Translations under genes and position numbers: made by a program
Origin: Fodinibius halophilus
GTDB taxonomy: Bacteria > Bacteroidota > Rhodothermia > Balneolales > Balneolaceae
Direction: 5' to 3'
Assembly: GCF_011059105.1 (NCBI RefSeq)
Contig: NZ_JAALLS010000015.1
Span: 53,933-85,932 of the forward strand
DNA: 32,000 nucleotides
Part shown: positions 1 through 13,908 of the stretch, in pieces
Layout of the letters: the number at the start of each line of letters is the position of its first letter
Numbering within the stretch: the stretch's first letter is position 1
Notes under the pieces: model-generated
The model's database searches: none
Told to the model about the DNA's origin: nothing
What the model saw: the letters and a program-made list of their open reading frames with translations, nothing else

Positions 1-1769
1 ATTTTATTCAGGCCAATGTGTATGGTGAGTATGATATCCTGAAAAACCTGACATATGAACTTCGTTTTGGAGCGAATATTGATAACGGATACCTAAACTA
101 CTTTGCTCCCACCTATTATACCAGTTCGATATATAAACGAGAGGTTTCATATTTGTCGCAACAGCGCAGCCGGAATACTGAAACTTCTATATATACATTG
201 CTTCGCTATACCAACAGCTTCAAAGATCATGATATTGAAGCGATGGCGGGCTATTCGCAGGAACGATCGATCTATAAGTCTTCAAATGCTTCTATTGATG
301 ATCTGCCGTCGAATGAAATTCGGGCTCTAAGTGCCGGCAGTGGAAGTGCTTCGGTATCAGGATCTATTTTTGAAAGTACCATGCGCTCGCAATTTGGTCG
401 TTTGACCTACTCCTATGACAGCCGCTACCTCTTTACCGGCAACATTCGTCGTGACGGATCGTCTCGATTTGCTGAAAGTAACCGGTATGGAATTTTCCCC
501 TCAGCTTCTGTTGGCTGGAGAATAAGTGAAGAATCGTTCTTTAATTTTGATAACATCACAAACTTTAAATTACGTGCCAGCTTGGGTAAGCTTGGAAACC
601 AGGAAATTGGTAACTACCAGTTTATTCCTACTATTTCTGCCGGCAGCAACTATATCAACTATGTGTTGGGCGAAGAGCAGAATATTTATAACGGGGCCAT
701 CATAACCAATTTTGCAGCTACGGATATCAAATGGGAAACAACGACCTCCCGAAATATCGGTGTAGATCTCTCTCTGTATGATGATAAAATTCAGTTTACT
801 GCTGACTACTACAACAATGTTACAAGCGATATGTTGGTCAATATTCCAATTCCAGCCACTTCCGGTTCTTCTGCGGGTCCGTTAACCAATGGCGGTGAGA
901 TGGAAACTGAGGGAGTCGAATTTTCTGCCCGATACAGTGAAGGCAACGGTCCTTTCACTTATAACGTCCGTGCAAACATTTCTACTTCGCGTAATACGGT
1001 AACTAAACTTGGTTTTAAAGACGAGGCTTTTACCGGTGGATATATTGAGTATGGCACCCACCCTACTACGCGAACGGTGGTAGGCGGAGAAATAGCACGG
1101 TTCTACCTGTACGAAACAGACGGGCTTTTCCAAAATGCCCAGGAAGTACAGGCACACAGCAGTTCCAGTGGCTTATTACAGCCCAATGCAGCGCCCGGGG
1201 ATGTCCGTTTCAAAGATACCAACGGCGACGGTGTCCTTAACGAAGATGACAAAGTGTATATGGGCAGTGCCGCTCCGGATTTCGAATACGGCCTTACCTT
1301 TAACGCCAACTACCAAAACTTTGACCTGAGTGTATTTGTGCAAGGTACCTACGGCAACAAGATGTACAACGGTACCAAATTCTTAACCCATCGTACCGAT
1401 AGAAATACAAACTATTCTACCGAGCTGCTGGATGCCTGGACGCCCCAAAATACCGATACCGACGTACCGCGAAATATTTCGGGAGATCCCAACGGCAATG
1501 CCCGTCCCTCGGATCGATTCCTGGAAGATGCCTCATATCTTCGTATCAAGAACCTGCAACTGGGATACACTTTGCCCGACAAGCTTTTAGGCAATTCCGG
1601 GGTTAGCAAATTCCGGGTGTACGTAAGCTTCGAAAACCTGGCAACCCTTACCAGTTATAGCGGATTTGATCCCAGCCTAAATAACTTCTCGTTATTTAGA
1701 AGAGGCGTTGACAGTGGGCTCTACCCACTGGCCAGAACATCCATGATTGGCATCCAAACACAGTTTTAA
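1..1769 (+). CDS. SusC/RagA-family TonB-dependent outer-membrane receptor, C-terminal part (5' end lies outside the window)
   Basis: The reading frame starting at base 3 is open from the window edge (FIQANVYGEY...), so the GTG listed at 18 is not the true start. The sequence is long and beta-barrel-like (rich in Y/G/N/S/T) and ends in the terminal aromatic ...MIGIQTQF typical of OM barrels. A SusD-like lipoprotein gene follows 19 nt downstream. Confidence 0.85.
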   Translation, partial: FIQANVYGEYDILKNLTYELRFGANIDNGYLNYFAPTYYTSSIYKREVSYLSQQRSRNTETSIYTLLRYTNSFKDHDIEAMAGYSQERSIYKSSNASIDDLPSNEIRALSAGSGSASVSGSIFESTMRSQFGRLTYSYDSRYLFTGNIRRDGSSRFAESNRYGIFPSASVGWRISEESFFNFDNITNFKLRASLGKLGNQEIGNYQFIPTISAGSNYINYVLGEEQNIYNGAIITNFAATDIKWETTTSRNIGVDLSLYDDKIQFTADYYNNVTSDMLVNIPIPATSGSSAGPLTNGGEMETEGVEFSARYSEGNGPFTYNVRANISTSRNTVTKLGFKDEAFTGGYIEYGTHPTTRTVVGGEIARFYLYETDGLFQNAQEVQAHSSSSGLLQPNAAPGDVRFKDTNGDGVLNEDDKVYMGSAAPDFEYGLTFNANYQNFDLSVFVQGTYGNKMYNGTKFLTHRTDRNTNYSTELLDAWTPQNTDTDVPRNISGDPNGNARPSDRFLEDASYLRIKNLQLGYTLPDKLLGNSGVSKFRVYVSFENLATLTSYSGFDPSLNNFSLFRRGVDSGLYPLARTSMIGIQTQF

Positions 1770-1788
1770 TTAACAACAGACGAATATT

Positions 1789-3303
1789 ATGAAACTTACC
1801 AACTATTTACTGTTACTAACGTTTAGTCTGCTCCTTTTAGCAGGCTGTGATGACGGCTTCTTGGTACAAACCAATGGTAATGAGCTTAACAAGGAGCTAT
1901 TTTGGAAGGATAAAACCGACGCTAAAAAAGGTATTATCGCAACCTACAGTCAGCTCCAAGCCGATGGGCGCTGGGGCTGGTTCGAAAACCATTATATTGC
2001 TCAAAACTATCGCTCAGATCTAATCCGGGCTACTCGTAAAGATCTGCCCTTTGCACAAAAGATTGCAGGCTTTACGTTTACCTCTGATAACAAAGCATTT
2101 AGTGATCTCTGGGAAGATTACTACAACGGTATATTCTATGCCAACCAGGTTATAGAGAATGTGCCGCAGATCCCGGAGCTTTCGAATAGTGATAAAGAGC
2201 AATTTGTGGCAGAAGCGAAATTCCTGAGAGGGTACTACTATTTGAACCTGGTTACACTGTTTAAAAATATCCCGCTGGTTACTTCAGTCCCTCAAAACAG
2301 TGACGATTATTACGCTGAGCAGGCCAGCCCGGAAAAAGTGTGGGACCAGATCATAGCAGACTTCAAAGTAGCAAAAAATACCCTTCCCGCTTCCTACTCT
2401 GTAGAAGATAAAGGACGTGCCACCAAATGGGCCGCCCAGGGGTATCTGGGTAAAGCCTATATGTTCCTTCACGATTTTGACAAGGCTGATGATGAGTTCA
2501 AAAACATTATCGACAACGGCGGCTTCTCTCTCCTGTCAAACTTTACCGACAATTTTAATGGAAGTGGAGAAAACGGTGCGGAATCCCTTTTTGAAATCCA
2601 GCACTCTTCAAAACGCCCTAACGGATTTACCGAATCTACGCCACTGTATAACGAGCAGGCCCCCGGTATTATGGGGGGATGGGAAGAGTTCTTCCCCGCC
2701 GACTGGCTTTTTAATCGTATGATGGAAGATACTACTGCTTCCGGTGAGCTCAGCGACCGTGTAATGGGAACCGTATTTTTTGATCATCCCAACTCTACGG
2801 CAGATGGTATCGCCTATGCGGATATTAAAAGCGATCTGGGCAGCGAAAAGCGTTTCTATAAGAAATATCTCTACAGTAATGATATTTCGGATGGCAACAC
2901 TACCCGCAGTGGTATGAATGTGCATCTCATGCGCTATGCCGACATTCTGCTGCTATACGCGGAAGCCCTCAATGAACTGGGACAAACGGGACAAGCGATT
3001 CCCTACGTCAACCAGGTTCGTCAACGATCTGGCAGTGCTGATCTTTCCAGCAGTATGAGCCAGTCGCAGCTACGCAATCACCTGCGTCATGTTGAACGTC
3101 CCGTTGAATTTGCTATGGAGTTCGGCATCCGTTGGTTTGACCTTGCTCGCTGGAAGAAAGGCAACCTCAGCATCAAAAGTATACTAACAAACCACGGTAA
3201 ACCTGATGCTGCTAACTTTGAGGAAGGGAAGCATGAACTTTACCCCATTCCCCTTTCAGAGATCAATAAGAATGCAAAACTGGAACAAAACTCCGGTTAC
3301 TAA
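1789..3303 (+). CDS. RagB/SusD-family nutrient-binding outer-membrane lipoprotein
   Basis: Signal peptide with lipobox (LLLAGC). SusD-like motifs FLRGYYYLNLVTLFKNIPLV and ERPVEFAMEFGIRWFDLARW. Positioned directly after the SusC-like gene. Confidence 0.9.
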   Translation: MKLTNYLLLLTFSLLLLAGCDDGFLVQTNGNELNKELFWKDKTDAKKGIIATYSQLQADGRWGWFENHYIAQNYRSDLIRATRKDLPFAQKIAGFTFTSDNKAFSDLWEDYYNGIFYANQVIENVPQIPELSNSDKEQFVAEAKFLRGYYYLNLVTLFKNIPLVTSVPQNSDDYYAEQASPEKVWDQIIADFKVAKNTLPASYSVEDKGRATKWAAQGYLGKAYMFLHDFDKADDEFKNIIDNGGFSLLSNFTDNFNGSGENGAESLFEIQHSSKRPNGFTESTPLYNEQAPGIMGGWEEFFPADWLFNRMMEDTTASGELSDRVMGTVFFDHPNSTADGIAYADIKSDLGSEKRFYKKYLYSNDISDGNTTRSGMNVHLMRYADILLLYAEALNELGQTGQAIPYVNQVRQRSGSADLSSSMSQSQLRNHLRHVERPVEFAMEFGIRWFDLARWKKGNLSIKSILTNHGKPDAANFEEGKHELYPIPLSEINKNAKLEQNSGY

Positions 3304-3318
3304 CCCCTTCAATTAATT

Positions 3319-3352
3319 AAAAAGCCCGGGCTTAAAACCGCTTGGGCTTTTT
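3319..3352 (+). terminator. Possible intrinsic terminator after the SusD-like gene
   Basis: Inverted repeat aaaagccc ... gggctttt ending in a T-run, 16 nt after the stop codon. The loop is long (about 16 nt), so the call is weak. Confidence 0.35.
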
Positions 3353-3436
3353 GATTAGTAGAAGCAAAACGTTCGCAAAATTGTGTACCTTCAACCCAGT
3401 AATTACGATAGTTGACGGAAGATTTTCTATAATTAA

Positions 3437-7572
<4,136 letters not shown>

Positions 7573-7581
7573 CCGTTATTT

Positions 7582-8814
7582 ATGCAACTGAAGAACGCTA
7601 CCTATCATATTCAAGATATTAGCATGGAAGCGCTTGCCGAAAAGTACGGCACGCCGCTATTTGTGTATAATGCATTCACTATAGACCGACAGATTAATCG
7701 ATTGCAGAATGCGTTTGACGGTTTTCCCCATCGTATTAACTATGCTGCTAAATCACTGACGAATATTGCGGTGCTGAAGCTGATGTGCAGTTATGGGCTG
7801 GGATTGGATGTTGTTTCGGTGAATGAGCTACAGATGGGACTGGACGCAGGTTTTGATGCCGATGATATTCTTTTCACCTCTAACAGCGTCTCTTTTGAGG
7901 AGATAAAAGAGGCCATTGCCCGCGGTGTTAAGGTCAATATTGATAGCCTTTCCCTGTTAGAAACCTTTGGCAAGGAGTATGGAGGCAGTCAGCCCTGTAG
8001 TATTCGGCTGAAGCTGGATCCCCTGGTGGGCGAGCACGAAGCCTCAACCGAATGGCACAACAAATCGAAATTCGGTATCCATTATTCGCGTCTGGATGAT
8101 ATTAAGGCCCTGATCGACACCTACAATCTCGATATTGTGGGTCTGCATGTTCATAACAGCTCCTCCTTTTTGGATATCCCCGTGTATGTGAAGGCGGCCA
8201 AACGGATGTTTGATATCGCTCGGTCGTTTGAAGGCTTGGATTTTATCGATTTTGGTGGCGGCATTACTGTTCCTTTTCACCCGGAGGATGAAACCATCGA
8301 TGTAAATAAACTGGGAAAGGCATTAACTACCGAGGTACACTCTTTTTATGATGATTACGGGAGCAGGCCGGAAATATGGTTTGAGCCGGGGCGGTTTTTA
8401 GTTAGTGAATGTGGATACCTGCTTTGTTCGGTTACCGTTTTAAAAGGAGATCGCGACCTCCCTTATGCCGGTACAGATACCGGTTTTAATCACCTGTTGC
8501 GTCCCAAGTTGTATGGCGCCTATCACGATATTTGTAATATTTCCAATCCCGAAGGAGAACTACAGAATTATCACATTACCGGGAATATGTGTGAGACCGA
8601 TTTCCTGGGCAGAGATCGGCCGGTTGCTCGTATTCGGGAAGGCGATATTCTCTGTATCAAAAATGCCGGTGCATACGGGGCCTGTATGGCCTCAAACTAC
8701 AACTCGCGCCTACGGCCTGCCGAAGTGATGATTCGGGAAGGCAAAGTACAGCTGATAAGGGAACGAGAAACGTACGAAGATCTGGTGCGAAATCAGCTTG
8801 ATGTCAGCTGGTAA
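7582..8814 (+). CDS. lysA: Diaminopimelate decarboxylase (PLP-dependent, Orn/DAP/Arg decarboxylase family)
   Basis: 410 aa. PLP-lysine context INYAAKSL, glycine loop DFGGGI, EPGRFLV and GNMCETDF motifs, with the expected length and fold order. Confidence 0.75.
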   Translation: MQLKNATYHIQDISMEALAEKYGTPLFVYNAFTIDRQINRLQNAFDGFPHRINYAAKSLTNIAVLKLMCSYGLGLDVVSVNELQMGLDAGFDADDILFTSNSVSFEEIKEAIARGVKVNIDSLSLLETFGKEYGGSQPCSIRLKLDPLVGEHEASTEWHNKSKFGIHYSRLDDIKALIDTYNLDIVGLHVHNSSSFLDIPVYVKAAKRMFDIARSFEGLDFIDFGGGITVPFHPEDETIDVNKLGKALTTEVHSFYDDYGSRPEIWFEPGRFLVSECGYLLCSVTVLKGDRDLPYAGTDTGFNHLLRPKLYGAYHDICNISNPEGELQNYHITGNMCETDFLGRDRPVARIREGDILCIKNAGAYGACMASNYNSRLRPAEVMIREGKVQLIRERETYEDLVRNQLDVSW

Positions 8815-8895
8815 TACATTTTAAAAATGATATCTCCCTGTACCGTATTCGTGCTACAAAATGGTTAAAATGAATAAAGAACGTATCAAAAGCTC

Positions 8896-10917
8896 ATGAA
8901 TAATACTTTTAGGTTAATGCTTTTATCCCTTGCGCTGCTTCTGTTTACAATAATATCATGCAGTTCTGTTGAGGTCAATAAAGAAGCTAAGGAGATTACT
9001 GATTTCCCTGATGCTCTTGAGATGGAGGGCGTCCCTGACAGCACCACCGATGGAGGCATATCCGTATTTACTGATCAGGGTTCCTGGTTTGGTTTTGCTT
9101 TTAGTGCGGGTAGATCTCCACAAGGTAAGGTCGGTTTTTCGGGACCCTACCGGATATCTGACAGCTGGCGTACTGCCAGTCGGTGGCAGGGAAAAACGTT
9201 CGCAAAGCTACTGCTCAAAAAGGAGGGGCAAGATAGCTACCGGGAACCTATTGAGGTCAGTTCTCATTCTTATCCCGGGCGGTTGCAACAGCAGGTCAAA
9301 TATGCTGATATAACAGCAACGATGACCCTCATTTTCAGCTCTGAGAAAACAGTGCTGGTACGTACTGAACTCAAGAACAGGAGTTCAGCCTCCCAAAAGA
9401 TTATTCCCCAATGGAGACATACCTCTTTTTCGAACTTTCTCGGCATAGAGGCCGATCAGGGTATCCTAAAGGTTGAAACCGGTACGGATGAACCATCATA
9501 CTATATTTCCGGTGATTTCCCCTTTTCGGTTCATCGAGAGGAAGCAGCCTATGATGTAGCAGCAGTTAATCCGGTTGAGTTAGCACCAAACGCTTCTGCT
9601 ACAACATATCTCTCTTACTCATACTCCAAAGAAGAAGCATCCGCCCCTATTGCAGATGCCGGTGATCACTTCTCTGAAAACAGGAGCCGCTGGAATAAAC
9701 AGATCAATGATATGTTAGGAGCACCTACCCCCTGGAACAAAGACCGTAGCCTGCAGCGCTTGTCAATAAAAAGCATAATGACTCTCATTAATAACTGGCG
9801 AAGTCCCCGCGGAGATCTGCGTTATAACGGGCTTTTCCCCTCCTATGCCTACCAGGGCTTCCACGGCATTTGGTCTTGGGATTCATGGAAGCATGCCTCT
9901 GCCCTGGCCCTTTTTGATTCCGAACTGGCTAAGGACCAGATGCGGGTGATGTTTGATTATCAGAATGAGTCAGGCATGGTTCCCGATGTTATTTATGCGG
10001 ACAGTACGGAAAACAACTGGCGCGATACCAAGCCTCCCCTTGCCGCCTGGGCCGTATGGAATATCTACGAGCAATCGGGCGACAGTACCTTCTTGAGTGA
10101 GATATATCCCAAGCTAAAGCGTTATCATCGCTGGTGGTATGCCAATCGGGACCACGATGGCAATGGATTGTGTGAATATGGTTCTACCGACGGTACGCGG
10201 ATAGCGGCCGCCTGGGAGAGCGGTATGGATAATGCCGTGCGTTTTGATGATGCGGTAATGGTTAAAAACAGCGAAAATGCGTGGTCACTGAACCAGGAAT
10301 CGGTTGACCTGAATGCGTACCTCTATGCTGACAAGATATATTTGTCCAAAATGGCAGATAAGCTTGGGCTATCCAGGGAATCAGCAAAATTATACGAAGA
10401 AGCTCAAGGGCTGAAAGAACGGATTAATGAACAGATGTACGATTCTAAATCCGGTTATTATTATGATAAAGAGCTGGAGTCTGAGGCTCTTATCAGGGTC
10501 AAAGGTCCCGAAGGCTGGATTCCGCTCTGGGCAGGCATAGCAGATGAGCAGCAAGCAGTATCGGTCCGGGATATCATGATGGATGAAGATCATTTTCGTT
10601 CTACTGTTCCCTTGCCTACCCTGCAGGTTTCTCACCCCAAGTTTAACCCCCGAAACGGTTATTGGCGCGGTCCTGTATGGCTGGACCAGTTCTATTTTGG
10701 GATTAAGGCGCTTACGAACTATGGATTTGATAAAGAGGCCTCGATTTTGGTTGACCAGTTACTGAAAAATGCAAAAGGTTTGGCCGGGAGCCCGCAGCCT
10801 ATTCGTGAGAATTATCATCCCATTACCGGAGAAGGGCTAAATGCCCGGCATTTTAGCTGGTCAGCAGCCCATATTTTGATGATGAGCCAGATGGAGTCTC
10901 TGGAGTTAGAGCATTGA
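8896..10917 (+). CDS. Secreted lipoprotein glycoside hydrolase with (alpha/alpha)6-barrel catalytic domain, GH63/YgjK-like (trehalase/glucosidase-like clan)
   Basis: Lipobox (TIISC). C-terminal half carries IWSWDSWKHA, GMVPDV, PPLAAWAVWNIY, DGNGLCEYG, ESGMDNAVRFD, GYWRGPVWLDQFYF and ENYHPITGEGLNARHFSWSAAH, which are typical of GH63/GH37-like barrels. Confidence 0.7.
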   Translation: MNNTFRLMLLSLALLLFTIISCSSVEVNKEAKEITDFPDALEMEGVPDSTTDGGISVFTDQGSWFGFAFSAGRSPQGKVGFSGPYRISDSWRTASRWQGKTFAKLLLKKEGQDSYREPIEVSSHSYPGRLQQQVKYADITATMTLIFSSEKTVLVRTELKNRSSASQKIIPQWRHTSFSNFLGIEADQGILKVETGTDEPSYYISGDFPFSVHREEAAYDVAAVNPVELAPNASATTYLSYSYSKEEASAPIADAGDHFSENRSRWNKQINDMLGAPTPWNKDRSLQRLSIKSIMTLINNWRSPRGDLRYNGLFPSYAYQGFHGIWSWDSWKHASALALFDSELAKDQMRVMFDYQNESGMVPDVIYADSTENNWRDTKPPLAAWAVWNIYEQSGDSTFLSEIYPKLKRYHRWWYANRDHDGNGLCEYGSTDGTRIAAAWESGMDNAVRFDDAVMVKNSENAWSLNQESVDLNAYLYADKIYLSKMADKLGLSRESAKLYEEAQGLKERINEQMYDSKSGYYYDKELESEALIRVKGPEGWIPLWAGIADEQQAVSVRDIMMDEDHFRSTVPLPTLQVSHPKFNPRNGYWRGPVWLDQFYFGIKALTNYGFDKEASILVDQLLKNAKGLAGSPQPIRENYHPITGEGLNARHFSWSAAHILMMSQMESLELEH

Positions 10918-10969
10918 TCTTTTATTGGTTTGGGTTGTGACCCCATCTTGTTTTTTCTGACCCCTTCTT

Positions 10970-11004
10970 GTTCTTCCCCTGCACGCAGGGGAAGAGACTT
11001 TTTT
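10970..11004 (+). terminator. Hairpin A1 + T6 (intrinsic-terminator-like; probably terminates the glycosidase transcript)
   Basis: gt-tcttcccct / loop gcacgc / aggggaaga-g-ac. That is a 9-bp stem plus 2 bp beyond a 1-nt bulge, followed immediately by tttttt (10999-11004). It sits 53 nt after the stop at 10917. Confidence 0.55.
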
Positions 11005-11085
11005 ATTACGCGATTAGCTAAAAATTAATCCGAAATTCTCTGAAAGGTTATATGCATTACAACCCAGCACATATTGTGGGTAAGT

Positions 11086-11117
11086 GTCCCTCTCCCTACT
11101 GTTCGCAGGGAGAGGAC
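11086..11117 (+). other. Hairpin B1 (pyrimidine arm cctctccct, loop actgttcgc, purine arm agggagagg)
   Basis: Perfect 9-bp stem (11089-11097 / 11107-11115) plus gt/ac beyond a 1-nt C bulge. The purine arm ends 6 nt before GTG 11122. Confidence 0.8.
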
Positions 11118-11121
11118 AGGG

Positions 11122-11232
11122 GTGGGTCAGTACAGCCCATTATTTGTATTTTACCAATTCTATAAAGCTAATTTCATCCCAGGGTTTATTTGTAGGATTA
11201 CCATTTGGTGGCCGTTTCTTGGTTCAGTCTGA
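11122..11232 (+). CDS. Candidate small ORF (36 codons, GTG start): MGQYSPLFVFYQFYKANFIPGFICRITIWWPFLGSV; hypothetical hydrophobic/aromatic peptide
   Basis: My own translation; it is below the 60-aa cutoff of the ORF track. The stop TGA is the first 3 nt of the next repeat unit and leads into hairpin A2 + T6. It is duplicated at 11393-11503 with 3 synonymous changes and 1 non-synonymous change. There is no ATG and no AT-rich leader, so coding status is unproven. Confidence 0.25.
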   Translation: MGQYSPLFVFYQFYKANFIPGFICRITIWWPFLGSV

Positions 11233-11241
11233 CCCCTTCTT

Positions 11242-11276
11242 GTTCTTCCCCTATATCTAGGGGAAGAGACTTTTTT
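11242..11276 (+). terminator. Hairpin A2 + T6
   Basis: Same stem as A1, loop atatct, T6 at 11271-11276. It starts 10 nt after the TGA of the unit-1 small ORF. Confidence 0.5.
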
Positions 11277-11359
11277 ATATAGTAATAAGCTGGAAGTCGA
11301 CTGGGATTCTCTGAAAGGATATACGAATTACAACCCAACACATATTGTAGATAGGCGTC

Positions 11360-11386
11360 CCTCTCCCTGCGGGAAGTAGGGAGAGG
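11360..11386 (+). other. Hairpin B2 (same stem, loop gcgggaagt)
   Basis: Perfect 9-bp stem, 11360-11368 / 11378-11386. The purine arm ends 6 nt before GTG 11393. Confidence 0.8.
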
Positions 11387-11392
11387 TCAGGA

Positions 11393-11503
11393 GTGGGGCA
11401 GTACAGCCCATTATTTGTATTTTACCAATTCTATAAAGCTAATTTCATCCCAGGGTTTATCTGTAGGATTACCATTTGGTGGCCGTTTCTTGGTTTAGTT
11501 TGA
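11393..11503 (+). CDS. Candidate small ORF, second copy (36 codons): MGQYSPLFVFYQFYKANFIPGFICRITIWWPFLGLV
   Basis: Same frame and length as 11122-11232. Differences are GGT/GGG (Gly), ATT/ATC (Ile), TCA/TTA (Ser/Leu) and GTC/GTT (Val). The stop TGA is followed by hairpin A3 + T6. Confidence 0.25.
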   Translation: MGQYSPLFVFYQFYKANFIPGFICRITIWWPFLGLV

Positions 11504-11550
11504 CCCCACCTTGTTCTTTCCCTATATCTACGGGAAGAGACTTTTTTAAT
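11501..11550 (+). repeat. Structured repeat, unit 3, truncated after the hairpin A module
   Basis: tgaccccaccttgttctttccctatatctacgggaagagacttttttaat. The stem carries two substitutions (one wobble, one mismatch). The next bases, atttggtgggcttttctt (11553-11570), resemble the unit 3' end ccatttggtggccgtttctt. Confidence 0.8.
11513..11547 (+). terminator. Hairpin A3 + T6 (weakened stem)
   Basis: tctttccct / atatct / acgggaaga, with one G-T wobble and one C-C mismatch relative to the other copies. T6 at 11542-11547. Confidence 0.4.
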
Positions 11551-11611
11551 GGATTTGGTGGGCTTTTCTTCTCCATTTTTCCTCTATAAAGGTACTTAAC
11601 AAGTGACCATA

Positions 11612-11989
11612 TCATGCTTTAGAGCCTAGTGCTTTGGATATCTTTTTAAGAACTGTAGGCATGTCTGATAGCTCTTCATTTTTAATGCGCAGTACGTCTA
11701 TTCCCAGCTGATTGATTACGTAATCTCTATTGTTGTCATAAGCTGTGTTATAGGTGTGATACTTTCCATCCAGTTCAACAGCCAGCTTTGCCTTTGCACA
11801 GTAGAAATCTGCTATGAAAAAATACTTTTTTTGATTTCTTTGTCGGTATATTATCGGTTTTTGCCGGAGAAACCGATATCCATTTAGTTATCGTTTTCTC
11901 AGATATGGCCACAACTTTTTTTCCTCGGGTGTGGGATTATTTCTAAGTTCTCTGGCTAACTCTGTAATGGATTTCTTTTTCTCTCTCAT
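11612..11989 (-). pseudogene. DUF559 (Vsr-like PD-(D/E)xK endonuclease-related) gene interrupted by an in-frame TAA at codon 34
   Basis: My own translation: MREKKKSITELARELRNNPTPEEKKLWPYLRKR*LNGYRFLRQKPIIYRQRNQKKYFFIADFYCAKAKLAVELDGKYHTYNTAYDNNRDYVINQLGIDVLRIKNEELSDMPTVLKKISKALGSKA. It matches the DUF559 pattern (LW..LR...L.G.+FRRQ ... DF.C...KL.IELDG..H ... D..RD..L...G..VLR..N.E). The stop at 11888-11890 sits where family members usually have Gln (CAA to TAA). There is no restart codon downstream. Confidence 0.7.
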
Positions 11990-12140
11990 CTTTTCTTCGG
12001 GTACATAATGAATAACCAGTCAAAGTAATATATTTATAAATTTATTTTAAAAATACCATGGTAGCTTTTGTCTACTGGTTGAATTGTGAATTTATCTTGT
12101 ACTGCTTTTTGATGTTTTTGCTGCTTTATGCCCCCATCTT

Positions 12141-12175
12141 GTTCTTCCCCTATACCTAGGGGAAGAGACTTTTTT
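12141..12175 (+). terminator. Hairpin A4 + T6
   Basis: Same stem as A1/A2, loop atacct, T6 at 12170-12175. Confidence 0.45.
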
Positions 12176-12246
12176 ATTACGTAATTAGCTGGAAATTAAA
12201 CTGAGATTCTCTGAAAAGTTAAACCCAGCACGTATTGTAGATAAGC

Positions 12247-12278
12247 GTTCCTCTCCCTGCGAACAGTAGGGAGAGGAC
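12247..12278 (+). other. Hairpin B4 (same stem, loop gcgaacagt = exact reverse complement of the B1 loop)
   Basis: Perfect 9-bp stem, 12250-12258 / 12268-12276, plus gt/ac beyond a 1-nt bulge. The purine arm ends 6 nt before GTG 12283. Confidence 0.8.
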
Positions 12279-12282
12279 AGGA

Positions 12283-12444
12283 GTGGGTCAGCATACAAGT
12301 AATACAGGTTTTTCAATTCCATTTAAAACAATACTGCTGGCTGTCCTGAGCTACCCTGTTTTGATAATAATCAGCTGCTCACCCTCTATAAAAACATTTC
12401 CAATACCCTGCTGCCTGCATGTCAATACCTTTTCCTATTGTTGA
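12283..12444 (+). CDS. Candidate small ORF (53 codons, GTG start) behind hairpin B4: MGQHTSNTGFSIPFKTILLAVLSYPVLIIISCSPSIKTFPIPCCLHVNTFSYC
   Basis: Shares the GTG GGT CAG start context of the unit-1 ORF and has one hydrophobic stretch (ILLAVLSYPVLIII). No independent support. The nucleotides homologous to units 1/2 are read here in a different frame. Confidence 0.12.
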   Translation: MGQHTSNTGFSIPFKTILLAVLSYPVLIIISCSPSIKTFPIPCCLHVNTFSYC

Positions 12445-12546
12445 AGATAACTGCTATTGTTTCTAATGATATTTATTTGTAGCCTATATAAATATTCGTT
12501 GGATGAATAATAATACAAACAGTATCGTTCAGAGAGTTCATACCCA

Positions 12547-13908
12547 ATGACACATAGATTTATCATAATCTTTTTTCTGTCCCTTTTATTTGCCGGCTGT
12601 GCAAATAAACCCAGAAGAGTACTGCATGAACCCGAAAAAAGATTGGGCACCCACGGTAAAACGCCCATGCTTTTCCATTCAGCCCTGTATTATCCCAGTG
12701 GAATAAGCTTGAATTTCCCGGGTTATATCCTGGGCATTGAAAAAAGTGATAAGAAGAAAATTACTGATAACGATGACCTTAAAATAACCGGGCTGCCCGA
12801 AACCGGATTACCGCAACGAAAAGCTGCAAACGAGATCGTCGATAAAAAGATTATGTATGTCTCCCATATTGTTCGCTACTATGGAAAAAAGTTTGGACGG
12901 GATAACTGTGCATTATATAACGCATATATTCAGCCAAATAATATCGAGACCACCCAAAGCATCCCCCTTTGTGATGGAGTCGGTCGCACTCCAATACCTC
13001 CTAAACAGGCCTATATTAAAAGTTGGTACGCCTTAGATCAATTGAAGAAAATATTGAAGCAAGATATTTCTGCCCGCCAAAATACGGCTGGGGAATATAC
13101 TCATATTGTTGTAACGGTAATGGGCTGGAATACGGTACAAGAAAAAGCTGTTAGAAACTTTAACTCGATTATTAAAAATATTAAACAGCATGCAGGTGAA
13201 AGGTTCAATCCCCTGTTTATCGGGGTCACCTGGCCCAGTGAATGGGTTAGCAGCTGGATTAAACCTCTATTTGTAGGTGCCAGTTTTCCCACTAAAAAAC
13301 TTGATTCCGATGAAATTGGACTCACATGGCTGGGAGTGTTCATTCATGATATTATCCCTGAGGTAAATGATGATTTACCGATTACATTAATCGGTCACAG
13401 TTTTGGAGCCCGTGCATTAAGTGTGGCAACTTGTGCAGGTCCGGCAATTTACAGAACCGACTCTCCTATAAAAAAGCGTACTTTTGATGACCTTAGCCTG
13501 ATAAACCTGCAAGGGGCTTTTTCTATAAATCGTTTTCTGGGAGAGATCAACAATCAAAAAATCACCTTTAACAAAAGATGTACAAATATACCACGGGTAT
13601 TCCTTACCTCTTCAAAATATGATAATGCGGTTGATAAAGCTTTTTGGAGTGATTATACAGGAAGTATTGACAGCTATAATCAATTTTGTAAAGACTACAA
13701 AAAGAATGGTAGTGCCAACTGCCTAAAAACAGATTCCCTGGGTAATATCGAAACCGTCTATAATAATGATTCACATATATTCCTCATACAAGCGGATAAG
13801 CTGATAAACAGAAATGCTTATTTGACAAAAGGAGGAGCCCACAGTGATATCTATCGTAAAGAGCATGGCAACTTTCTATGGAATCTAATCACTGGAAAGT
13901 ATGATTAG
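12547..13908 (+). CDS. Lipoprotein, alpha/beta-fold serine hydrolase of unknown specificity (DUF900-like esterase/lipase)
   Basis: Lipobox LLFAGC. Nucleophile elbow LIGHSFGARAL (Ser codon 13399-13401). Candidate Asp (SSKYDNAVD) and His (KGGAHSDIY) lie downstream. The segment IVVTVMGWN...FIGVTWPSEW resembles the DUF900 N-terminal pattern. Spot GC counts are clearly lower than in neighbouring genes. Confidence 0.6.
   Translation: MTHRFIIIFFLSLLFAGCANKPRRVLHEPEKRLGTHGKTPMLFHSALYYPSGISLNFPGYILGIEKSDKKKITDNDDLKITGLPETGLPQRKAANEIVDKKIMYVSHIVRYYGKKFGRDNCALYNAYIQPNNIETTQSIPLCDGVGRTPIPPKQAYIKSWYALDQLKKILKQDISARQNTAGEYTHIVVTVMGWNTVQEKAVRNFNSIIKNIKQHAGERFNPLFIGVTWPSEWVSSWIKPLFVGASFPTKKLDSDEIGLTWLGVFIHDIIPEVNDDLPITLIGHSFGARALSVATCAGPAIYRTDSPIKKRTFDDLSLINLQGAFSINRFLGEINNQKITFNKRCTNIPRVFLTSSKYDNAVDKAFWSDYTGSIDSYNQFCKDYKKNGSANCLKTDSLGNIETVYNNDSHIFLIQADKLINRNAYLTKGGAHSDIYRKEHGNFLWNLITGKYD

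Follow-up and report, generated by a model that had tools for sequence, protein, structure and literature searches.

Triplex-motif repeat pairs clustered around a dead DUF559 nuclease gene in Fodinibius halophilus

Immediately after a glycosidase gene of Fodinibius halophilus lies a 1.6-kb island, at positions 10918-12546 of the 32,000-nucleotide stretch of DNA analysed here (which we refer to as the window), that contains no intact open reading frame (ORF); the initial annotation of this DNA had also described it as non-coding. The island is built from copies of a repeat with conserved hairpins, and between two of the copies lies a pseudogene of the DUF559 family. The locus thus raises two questions: what kind of element the repeat is, and whether the pseudogene has anything to do with it. 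We conclude that the island is a cluster of triplex-motif pairs, of the type known as BoxC, PIT or TM, around a dead DUF559 nuclease gene. The best explanation of the locus, to which we assign a probability of about 0.7, is a local cluster of triplex-motif inverted pairs together with a partner DUF559 nuclease gene.

Tandem Repeats Finder identified one array, at 10956-11548, with a period of 271, 2.2 copies and 86% matches. Hairpin A (TCTTCCCCT-N6-AGGGGAAGA) occurs exactly at 10972, 11244 and 12143 and with two mismatches at 11515, and hairpin B (CCTCTCCCT-N9-AGGGAGAGG) occurs at 11089, 11360 and 12250. Both are absent from the remainder of the 32 kb, and shuffled sequences lead to an expectation of 0.00 matches. 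The repeat copies, which we call E1 to E4, and the DNA duplicated with them are as follows, where T6 denotes a run of six T residues.

10935-10955, plus strand: orphan terminal box (TTGTGACCCCATCTTGTTTTT), found as a repeat-finder family; a left-end remnant without a hairpin, directly after the glycosidase stop codon.
10958-11129, plus strand: E1, a complete inverted pair; both modules detected, with 10-nt stems and at most one mismatch.
10958-10998, plus strand: left module of E1, consisting of box TGACCCCTTCTTGT, hairpin A (10972-10995) and GAC; T6 follows at 10999-11004.
11086-11129, plus strand: right module of E1, which follows the spacer that runs up to 11085; hairpin B (11089-11115) and box ACAGGGGTGGGTCA.
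11130-11229, plus strand: tail 1, 100 nt of flanking DNA duplicated with the element; 3/100 differences to tail 2, and absent after E4.
11230-11400, plus strand: E2, a complete inverted pair; hairpin A at 11244-11267 and hairpin B at 11360-11386.
11401-11500, plus strand: tail 2, the second copy of the flanking 100 nt, from comparison with tail 1.
11501-11547, plus strand: E3, left module only; hairpin A (11515-11538) with two stem mutations and T6 at 11542-11547; abuts the 3' flank of the DUF559 gene.
12129-12290, plus strand: E4, a complete inverted pair; hairpin A (12143-12166), T6 and hairpin B (12250-12276).

The two head-to-tail units, truncated third unit and diverged fourth copy of the initial annotation are thus all present, as the 2.2-copy array plus copy 4 (E4). 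The stems that it reported as conserved are so, A being exact in three copies and B in all three, and the loop sequences are as it gave them. The 272-bp unit that it took as the element is too long, however: the real element runs from TGACCCC to GGGTCA, a length of 163-172 nt, and because copy 4 has no tail, the 100-nt tail is not part of it. The 100 nt that follow GGGTCAG differ at three positions between the two tails (97% identity); for the last 111 nt of the units we count five differences, where four had been reported. The element bodies are 74-88% alike, in contrast to the 97% of the tails. Between E1 and E2 the identities are 36/41 in the left end, 64/87 in the spacer and 35/44 in the right end; copy 4 is 78-81% identical to units 1 and 2, and between E3 and the left module of E4 the identity is 89.6%.

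Each element is an inverted pair of structured ends, each of about 40 nt, that enclose a variable spacer. An end consists of a terminal box, a linker of 1-3 nt, and a hairpin with one pyrimidine arm and one purine arm. The left end reads TGACCCC(A/T)TCTTGT as the box, followed by the hairpin TCTTCCCCT-loop-AGGGGAAGA and GAC, and the right end reads GTC, the hairpin CCTCTCCCT-loop-AGGGAGAGG and the box ACAGGAGTGGGTCA; on the minus strand the layout of the right module equals that of the left. The terminal box is the mirror image of the neighbouring arm, not its complement, for example CCCCTTCT, TGT, TCTTCCCC on the left and GGGAGAGG, ACA, GGAGTGGG on the right, and the A and B ends, which have different stems, have correspondingly different boxes. 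The structure under selection is thus more than the two bulged hairpins described earlier: it combines a hairpin with a mirror-image third strand, which had been missed. The imperfect terminal inverted repeat of about 23 nt, which had been compared to a miniature inverted-repeat transposable element (MITE) or a REPIN, is correct in its architecture, although it extends over about 40 nt including the hairpins.

The loops are variable, as had been proposed, but not freely so, in that the B loops of copy 1 (ACTGTTCGC) and copy 4 (GCGAACAGT) are exact reverse complements of each other. E4 thus carries a flipped hairpin B loop relative to E1, and it has a 10-nt deletion in its spacer. Loop flips occur in other motif families too, as TGTAA/TTACA and TGGAA/TTCCA on identical stems. 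The flip in the window would point to inversion, or to template switching between the hairpin arms, and so to a hairpin that forms in DNA. Programs that consider Watson-Crick pairs only predict two hairpins and a closing stem for E1 as DNA, with a z score of -4.0, and give a z score of -6.5 for E4 as RNA. The two terminal boxes can pair with each other over 15 nt, with one conserved C.T mismatch and wobbles. A closing helix of this kind was rejected as the main constraint, because each box tracks its own adjacent stem and not the partner box; we treat the pairing between boxes as a by-product of the inverted-repeat layout.

We searched for such ends using a triplex-motif detector, which requires a hairpin plus a mirror third block with G opposite G and either A or T opposite A. 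Six modules were detected in the window, at 10960-10996, 11088-11127, 11232-11268, 11360-11398, 12131-12167 and 12249-12288, with stems of 9-10 nt, 0-1 stem mismatch and 0-1 mismatch in the third block. All intact modules pass, E3 fails owing to its stem mutations, and the detector found no module elsewhere in the 32 kb. The copies in the window are all non-coding and are paired A with B.

The mirror relationship is general. A degenerate pattern in which only ACCC, CCCT, AGGG and AC are fixed and other positions are specified as pyrimidine or purine, and in which mirror symmetry is not imposed, matched at least 120 loci in metagenomes, and the box mirrors the arm in nearly every match. Across 47 distinct box/arm combinations from many taxa, the mirror register agrees at 4.85 of 5 variable positions, compared with 2.91±0.16 for 2000 shuffles (the highest reaching 3.57) and 3.06 for the direct register, and 17 different arm sequences each have their own mirrored box. 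The hairpins also show Watson-Crick covariation, with 58 double-change cells against 32.7±5.9, a value reached in 0/500 shuffles. This bears out the earlier suggestion of one repeat family under structural selection. Folded RNA or single-stranded DNA had been offered as the selected form, and the mirror covariation and two-fold symmetry favour single-stranded DNA over RNA. The mirror is broken systematically in one way only: opposite the first A-T pair the C-rich strand has A, and the G-rich strand accordingly T, which the antiparallel purine motif permits and the pyrimidine motif does not. The G-rich strand is predicted to be able to fold back into the major groove of the hairpin, making G.GC, A.AT and T.AT triads. 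This purine motif is preferred because it tolerates both the A and the T variants of the box; a pyrimidine-motif triplex on the C-rich strand was ruled out by the frequent A in the box.

Structures of this kind have been described previously. The BoxC repeats of the 1990s (Bachellier et al.), the PIT elements (Hoyne, Maher et al. 2000) and the TM or TMECO motifs of Holder et al. (2015) are one and the same (PMC4666352). The isolated strand of the E. coli motif forms a triplex in vitro as judged by circular dichroism and nuclear magnetic resonance, and purine-motif DNA triplexes do not form in RNA according to the literature cited there (PMC4666352). Strain MG1655 has 23 TMECO copies with conserved stems and variable loops, and inverted pairs, described as type A plus type B, always join a motif with a TTA linker to one with a CCG linker (PMC4666352). 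Rearrangement is raised around the motifs, PIT elements had proved inactive as promoters and as terminators in earlier studies, and the neighbours of the E. coli motifs show no functional gene class and no nearby transposase or integrase (PMC4666352). The ITxF search criteria applied in that work were a stem of 6-15 nt with at most one mismatch and both loops of 1-6 nt (PMC4666352); the left (A) modules of the window, with a 6-nt hairpin loop and a linker of 1-3 nt, fall within them.

The window elements share with BoxC/PIT/TM repeats the pyrimidine arm, the purine arm and the G/T-rich mirror block after a linker of 1-3 nt, the T interruption in the third strand, and the conserved stems with variable loops, as well as the intergenic position, the multiple copies, the inverted pairs of two subtypes and the locally rearranged DNA. 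They differ in their stems (TCTTCCCCT/AGGGGAAGA and CCTCTCCCT/AGGGAGAGG in the window, CCCTCTCCC/GGGAGAGGG in BoxC/PIT/TM) and linkers (GT/ACA as against TTA/CCG), in a long spacer of 77-87 nt with private conserved boxes, in the 9-nt loop of hairpin B, in the T6 after the left hairpin, and in their Balneolaceae host. The literature on BoxC/PIT/TM reports no associated gene, whereas the window has an embedded DUF559 gene. The stems AGGGGAAGA and AGGGAGAGG, with c/aca as linkers, do not match the E. coli TMECO consensus (GGGAGAGGG-TTA-GGGTGAGGG), which makes this another sequence family of the same class. The window element is therefore a new sequence family of a known triplex-motif class and not a new RNA, in a lineage, Balneolaceae, that is not mentioned for triplex motifs in PMC4666352. 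Membership of an already catalogued repeat family, which the modules have in the BoxC/PIT/TM class (PMC4666352), was an outcome that the initial annotation had counted as contrary to its own proposal.

The spacers of the window copies contain two conserved boxes, attctctgaaagg and attacaacccaRcacatattgt, at 11039-11082, 11310-11353 and 12207-12243. These boxes are absent from the shorter spacers (30-40 nt) of other Balneolaceae elements.

Two features of the island belong to the nuclease gene.

11612-11989, minus strand: DUF559/YcjD-type (Vsr-fold) nuclease pseudogene of 125 codons, with one nonsense codon.
11990-12128, minus strand: AT-rich 5' region of the DUF559 gene, 31-32% GC; presumed promoter and leader.

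The reading frame runs from 11989 to 11615 on the minus strand, and is interrupted by an in-frame TAA at 11888-11890 (codon 34), where relatives have Gln (CAA). The TAA could be a recent mutation or a sequencing error. When it is repaired, the protein matches PF04480 (DUF559) with an E value of 2e-29 and 101.9 bits, compared with a cut-off of 20.6. The DUF559 alignment shows no variation at D61, E72, D74 and H78, which are residues of catalytic type, and the family profile matches PDB entry 3HRL (1e-34) and the homing endonuclease I-Bth0305I (3R3P, 7e-7). The closest intact relatives are 73% identical and come from Balneolaceae. Many of the closest homologues are on contigs shorter than 2 kb, fitting assembly breaks at flanking repeats, and several close ones are labelled "leucyl-tRNA synthetase" by JGI, which looks like an annotation error. 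The AT-rich region corresponds in position to a gap of 75-180 nt that separates the start codon from the upstream element at other loci (L155, L089 and L081). No DUF559 remnants were found in the 100-nt tails.

The pseudogene had been regarded as an unrelated interruption of the repeats. A census in both directions shows that it is instead a recurrent partner of repeats of this kind. In the forward direction, loci were fetched by motif only, and their six-frame translations were searched with the DUF559 hidden Markov model. A DUF559 gene is present in 10/120 of the motif-fetched metagenome loci listed, and in nine of these it is within 300 nt of a motif. DUF559 is the top Pfam family among 150 ORFs flanking motifs, with six members, followed by the related restriction-endonuclease family PF18741 (MTES_1575) with five, matches that probably come from the same proteins as DUF559. 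All remaining Pfam families have 1-2 members each and are housekeeping, and there is no transposase, integrase or RAYT among the 25 most frequent.

In the reverse direction, 17 loci were fetched by DUF559: four from Balneolaceae, seven distinct contigs from viral collections, E. coli K-12, and five other enterobacterial genera. A strong motif, defined as G-rich with a stem of at least 8 nt, lies no more than 300 nt from the gene in 12/17, where about 0.06 would be expected per locus, and motifs number 2.5 per kb close to DUF559 but 0.09 per kb farther away in these loci. Phage-type partial homologues (covering residues 40-104 only), found on viral contigs with a profile from a four-sequence alignment, have two strong G+C-rich motifs in about 329 kb, with none reported beside the gene. 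Because these partial homologues have almost no motifs, the association is specific to full-length YcjD-type proteins. YcjD-type DUF559 genes and triplex motifs are strongly associated in both directions, and across phyla. The association appears to be unreported: we found no paper containing both "triplex" and "DUF559" in the literature searched, and papers on ycjD or DUF559 draw no link to BoxC.

Enterobacteria have the same pairing. In E. coli K-12, a canonical TMECO lies 168 nt downstream of ycjD (L153, 5205-5240). In Enterobacter asburiae, Kluyvera, Klebsiella, Franconibacter and Phytobacter the DUF559 gene occupies four different chromosomal sites, and in all five genera the ORF ends inside a CCG-type motif, which is followed by a TTA-type motif. 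Since the gene and motif pair occur at four chromosomal sites with the ORF ending in the motif, they travel together. The block of motif plus ycjD between fabI and sapF is present in 3346/5426 complete E. coli genomes, and other E. coli genomes sampled (for example O157:H7) have eefRABCD at the ycjD site. The eef allele examined contains no motif, and homology ends about 40 nt before the motif. At least two independent replacements of eef by ycjD have been inferred (PMC12817139). The ycjD-positive lineages include phylogroups A, B1 and C, ST69 and ST182, and the eef-positive ones phylogroups B2 and E. TMECO counts are 29 in 55989, 23 in K-12, 1 in IHE3034, 0 in Salmonella and 143 in Enterobacter asburiae (PMC4666352), and YcjD homologues occur in Enterobacter, Kluyvera and Klebsiella, with no Salmonella sequence among the best 120. 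This contrast between TMECO number and ycjD status across strains is anecdotal, being suggestive but circumstantial.

Two further repeats were observed at these enterobacterial loci. In the intergenic region between fabI and ycjD (L153, 5030-5440), the last 45 nt or so of ycjD, together with a hairpin overlapping the stop codon, recur as a degenerate copy some 35 nt further downstream. Klebsiella quasipneumoniae (L224/L225, 2860-3090) has tandem 66-nt repeats between two motifs downstream of DUF559, each with a further TCCCTCT...AGAGGGA hairpin.

The gene and the repeat also have a recurrent layout. The order element-DUF559-element, with the elements in direct orientation and often identical, is found at six loci (L023, L081, L089, L155, L162 and L165), and DUF559 homologues of the Balneolaceae metagenome-assembled genomes (MAGs) at L021 and L023 are likewise located between element copies. 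At some loci extra flanking DNA, the 5' or 3' end of the gene, or the end of an interrupted host gene is duplicated as well. For example, at L023 (MAG contig JAXHMA010000004.1, 5430-6260) an hsdS-like gene has an element-DUF559-element block at its 3' end. About 35 nt from the end of that gene (ATGATGCAGGAG..CTGACGGG..AA) flank the block on either side, with differences of a synonymous type, as though the insert carried a replacement gene end of its own. A Fodinibius sp. locus (L155) has the order Ea-Eb-DUF559-Ea', where Ea and Ea' are identical. In the window the order is E4 (complete), 139 nt, DUF559, 65 nt and E3 (left module only), so that one side is reduced.

These arrangements suggest a possible mechanism. 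The element would act at the DNA level as a selfish or structural repeat, and the DUF559 nuclease may recognise or nick its folded or extruded ends. The gene with one element would then insert at a resident element: two nicks at equivalent ends on opposite strands would be staggered by the length of the element, so that the whole target would be duplicated to give element-gene-element. The same product would result from homology-dependent copying into a broken element, a process similar to homing in which the repeats would act as portable homology arms. The array E1-tail-E2-tail-E3 could have arisen by unequal recombination between neighbouring copies. Gene conversion from other copies would account for bodies that are 74-88% alike beside tails that are 97% alike, and for the mosaic similarity of E1, E2 and E4. 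The nuclease gene would later have been struck by its single nonsense mutation. We suggest, tentatively and at less than even odds, that YcjD-type DUF559 proteins are the cognate enzymes of BoxC/PIT/TM repeats, forming a selfish module that seeds pairs without a gene and causes instability.

Several observations weigh against a cluster of triplex-motif pairs with a partner nuclease. No DUF559 gene is nearby in 110/120 of the motif-fetched metagenome loci listed, and 5/17 of the DUF559 loci have no strong motif within 300 nt. The binomial P of 8e-12 calculated at the level of loci is optimistic, as the loci are not phylogenetically independent. The 9-nt loop of hairpin B exceeds the ITxF limit of 1-6 nt, in an architecture that is otherwise the same, and the triplex in the window modules, with four consecutive G.GC triads and a conserved T interruption, is a prediction. 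The nuclease gene in the window is inactivated by one nonsense codon, and that the nuclease acts on the repeat is an inference. We found no consistent direct target-site duplication flanking 12 complete copies (in the window and at L003, L019, L021, L023 and L024). Copies in F. halophilus are counted for the window only, its genome not being among the matches of our hairpin-A scan. No DUF559 gene occurs within any of the Marinomonas loci described below. Finally, the repeats can frame other cargo: in F. salsisoli (L008, NZ_JAGGJA010000023.1, 3524-4470) two identical left modules with about 100 nt of shared flank, 897 nt apart, frame an ORF for a PIN-domain VapC-like toxin (3701-4090, minus strand) and a 68-residue putative antitoxin (4072-4278, minus strand).

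The last of these points bears on the one serious rival explanation, in which the repeats are a passive hotspot: being fragile and recombinogenic, they would collect small selfish genes, of which DUF559 is merely the commonest, with no specific relation to the repeat. The VapC/antitoxin cassette between identical left modules is what such a hotspot would gather, rearrangement is raised around motifs in the absence of any enzyme (PMC4666352), and most motifs have no DUF559 nearby. However, DUF559 is the only family enriched, with no transposase, integrase, toxin or nuclease other than the DUF559-type proteins in the top 25 of the census of 150 ORFs. The enterobacterial ORF ends inside the motif, and the gene and motif pair are kept together at four sites. 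Furthermore, the eef allele of E. coli is free of the motif, which indicates that the motif came with ycjD and did not precede it. We therefore regard a passive hotspot as unlikely, although it deserves to be taken seriously.

A second possibility is that the repeat is a structured non-coding RNA, either a small RNA or a cis-regulatory leader, with hairpins selected in RNA and ending at T6. The RNA fold predicted is strong (z -6.5), the stems are conserved, and a hairpin with T6 is present in all four local copies. A scan with a terminator consensus reported hairpin A of E1, E2 and E4, with 11 pairs followed by ACTTTTTTAT, and like a Rho-independent terminator hairpin A in these copies has a G+C-rich stem of 9-11 bp and then T6. 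Unlike such a terminator, it belongs to a repeat in which a mirror box precedes it and an inverted partner accompanies it. The T run is specific to this locus, since copies in other Balneolaceae continue as GACGC... and lack it. Transcripts ending at T6, which had been envisaged as a property of the repeat, are thus not a feature that other family members could share. The element is moreover two-fold symmetric, with modules on both strands that point either way with respect to the genes around them, and the covariation of the purine arm with the mirror block (T or A opposite A-T) fits a purine-motif DNA triplex. PIT elements had neither promoter nor terminator activity in earlier work (PMC4666352). 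No Rfam model matches the window at its gathering score, and allowing E values up to 1 yields one chance snoRNA match in the island. Taken together, these results make a structured RNA very unlikely.

A local role in termination is a separate matter. From the glycosidase stop to hairpin A of E1 the distance is 54 nt, and at the orthologous site of a relative (L159), whose glycosidase is 71% identical, a degenerate left module comes just after the stop codon. Because the relative has this module at the same place, one left module is old and is probably the glycosidase terminator. We predict that the left hairpin of E1 with its T6 probably also serves as terminator for the glycosidase gene.

As improbable as a structured RNA is a classical MITE or REPIN that depends on a transposase acting in trans from elsewhere in the genome (for example of the RAYT/IS200 type, or of another insertion sequence), with DUF559 irrelevant. 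The repeat does have the traits of a MITE, with terminal inverted repeats (TGACCCC...GGGTCA), a size below about 300 bp, no coding capacity and multiple copies, and its hairpin-forming ends resemble REP and REPIN sequences. Yet there is no target-site duplication, the 150 flanking ORFs have no transposase or RAYT among their 25 commonest families, and none is near the E. coli motifs either (PMC4666352). The sole recurrent neighbour, and the only gene repeatedly bounded by element ends, is DUF559, which is not a known transposase; the gene flanked is PF04480 and not a RAYT. Two other identities were tried and rejected. An integron attC site, suggested by structured direct repeats that separate small genes, is excluded by the absence of RYYYAAC/GTTRRRY core sites and of an integrase, and a diversity-generating retroelement, suggested by the variable spacer, by substitutions that show an excess of transitions (16:6) and are not adenine-specific, and by the absence of a reverse transcriptase.

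With REP/REPIN-RAYT systems the element shares a short structured repeat, inverted doublets, many dispersed copies and the lack of a target-site duplication, and in both a small gene of nuclease type, present once or a few times, has these repeats on its two sides. They differ in the gene, which is an HUH Y1 transposase in RAYT systems and here a protein of the PD-(D/E)XK/Vsr fold, for which mobilisation is putative, and in the mirror third-strand block that the window repeat adds to the palindrome. Comparison with homing endonucleases is also informative. The DUF559 profile matches the catalytic domain of I-Bth0305I (EDxHD family, 3R3P), and, like free-standing homing endonuclease genes, DUF559 is small and looks selfish: related genera have it at different chromosomal sites, and in E. 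coli it shows presence/absence allelism. Unlike them, it lies between repeat copies and not in a conserved protein gene, has no intron or intein, and encodes a protein of only about 120 residues without a separate large DNA-binding domain. Vsr recognises a distorted duplex, containing a T:G mismatch, and nicks one strand, and structure-specific nicking by DUF559 is therefore plausible. DUF559 shares its fold and superfamily group with Vsr (PMC3424549). It differs in belonging to PF04480 and not PF03852, and in having no adjacent cytosine methyltransferase in the window, and a role in mismatch repair is unsupported.

In the least credible alternative, the glycosidase terminator region was duplicated in tandem, recently and neutrally, and neither a function nor a family is involved. 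This would fit the 97% identity of the 100-nt tails, the local array and the terminator-like hairpin A with T6, but it has almost no probability given that the bodies are 74-88% alike against 97% for the tails, that the fourth copy has no tail, that the same modules occur at unrelated sites in other Balneolaceae genomes, that stem and mirror box covary, and that the DUF559 association recurs.

A scan for the hairpin-A pattern, with one genome per species, gave exact matches in Fodinibius salsisoli (6), in other Aliifodinibius/Fodinibius genomes and in Balneolaceae MAGs. No plasmid matched the repeat unit, and viral contigs gave only two exact hairpin-A matches, both in very large contigs. The triplex-motif class itself is present in many phyla. 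In many Marinomonas genomes (Gammaproteobacteria, L001-L030) the same 9-bp stem (TCTTCCCCT/AGGGGAAGA) occurs with the box ACCCCATCTT; these modules have a CCG linker and many copies, and are embedded in larger composite repeat regions. The shared stem and box may reflect either horizontal transfer or convergence.

Upstream of the island, 18-10917 is a cluster of the polysaccharide-utilisation type, with genes for a TonB-dependent receptor, SusD, a GH2 beta-galactosidase, an APH-family kinase, a pyridoxal-phosphate (PLP) decarboxylase and a GH63/MGH1-like glycosidase. The glycosidase as read here has no exact match on record, but a protein with an alternative start (P0121) is 100% identical to it. 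Gene order is shared with F. saliphilus (L158) through the glycosidase, and this synteny stops exactly at the island. The island had been described as very AT-rich, which is correct for 11800-12100 and 12300-12500 (31-35% GC) but not for the repeat units (39-47% GC). One feature remains at its downstream edge.

12291-12546, no strand assigned: AT-rich spacer, which reaches the start of a 453-residue lipoprotein-like ORF; no repeat-family sequence.

This ORF (12547-13908) has no match in Pfam or NCBIfam. Its N-terminus (MTHRFIIIFFLSLLFAGCANK) resembles a lipoprotein signal with a lipobox cysteine, and it contains a small tandem repeat (12 nt, 2.2 copies) at 13041-13068.

The island is best viewed as selfish or structural DNA and not as a new regulatory RNA. 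BoxC/PIT/TM repeats, known in E. coli since the 1990s, are abundant in many bacteria and mark unstable loci, and neither their function, nor their origin, nor any activity that mobilises them has been found; the YcjD/DUF559 proteins, a widespread family with a nuclease fold, have no known role. A functional pair, if true, would explain both orphans. The link between DUF559 and the repeat is directly testable in E. coli K-12, and if it holds, it would represent a second system comparable to REPIN/RAYT, using another nuclease fold and built on a DNA triple helix.

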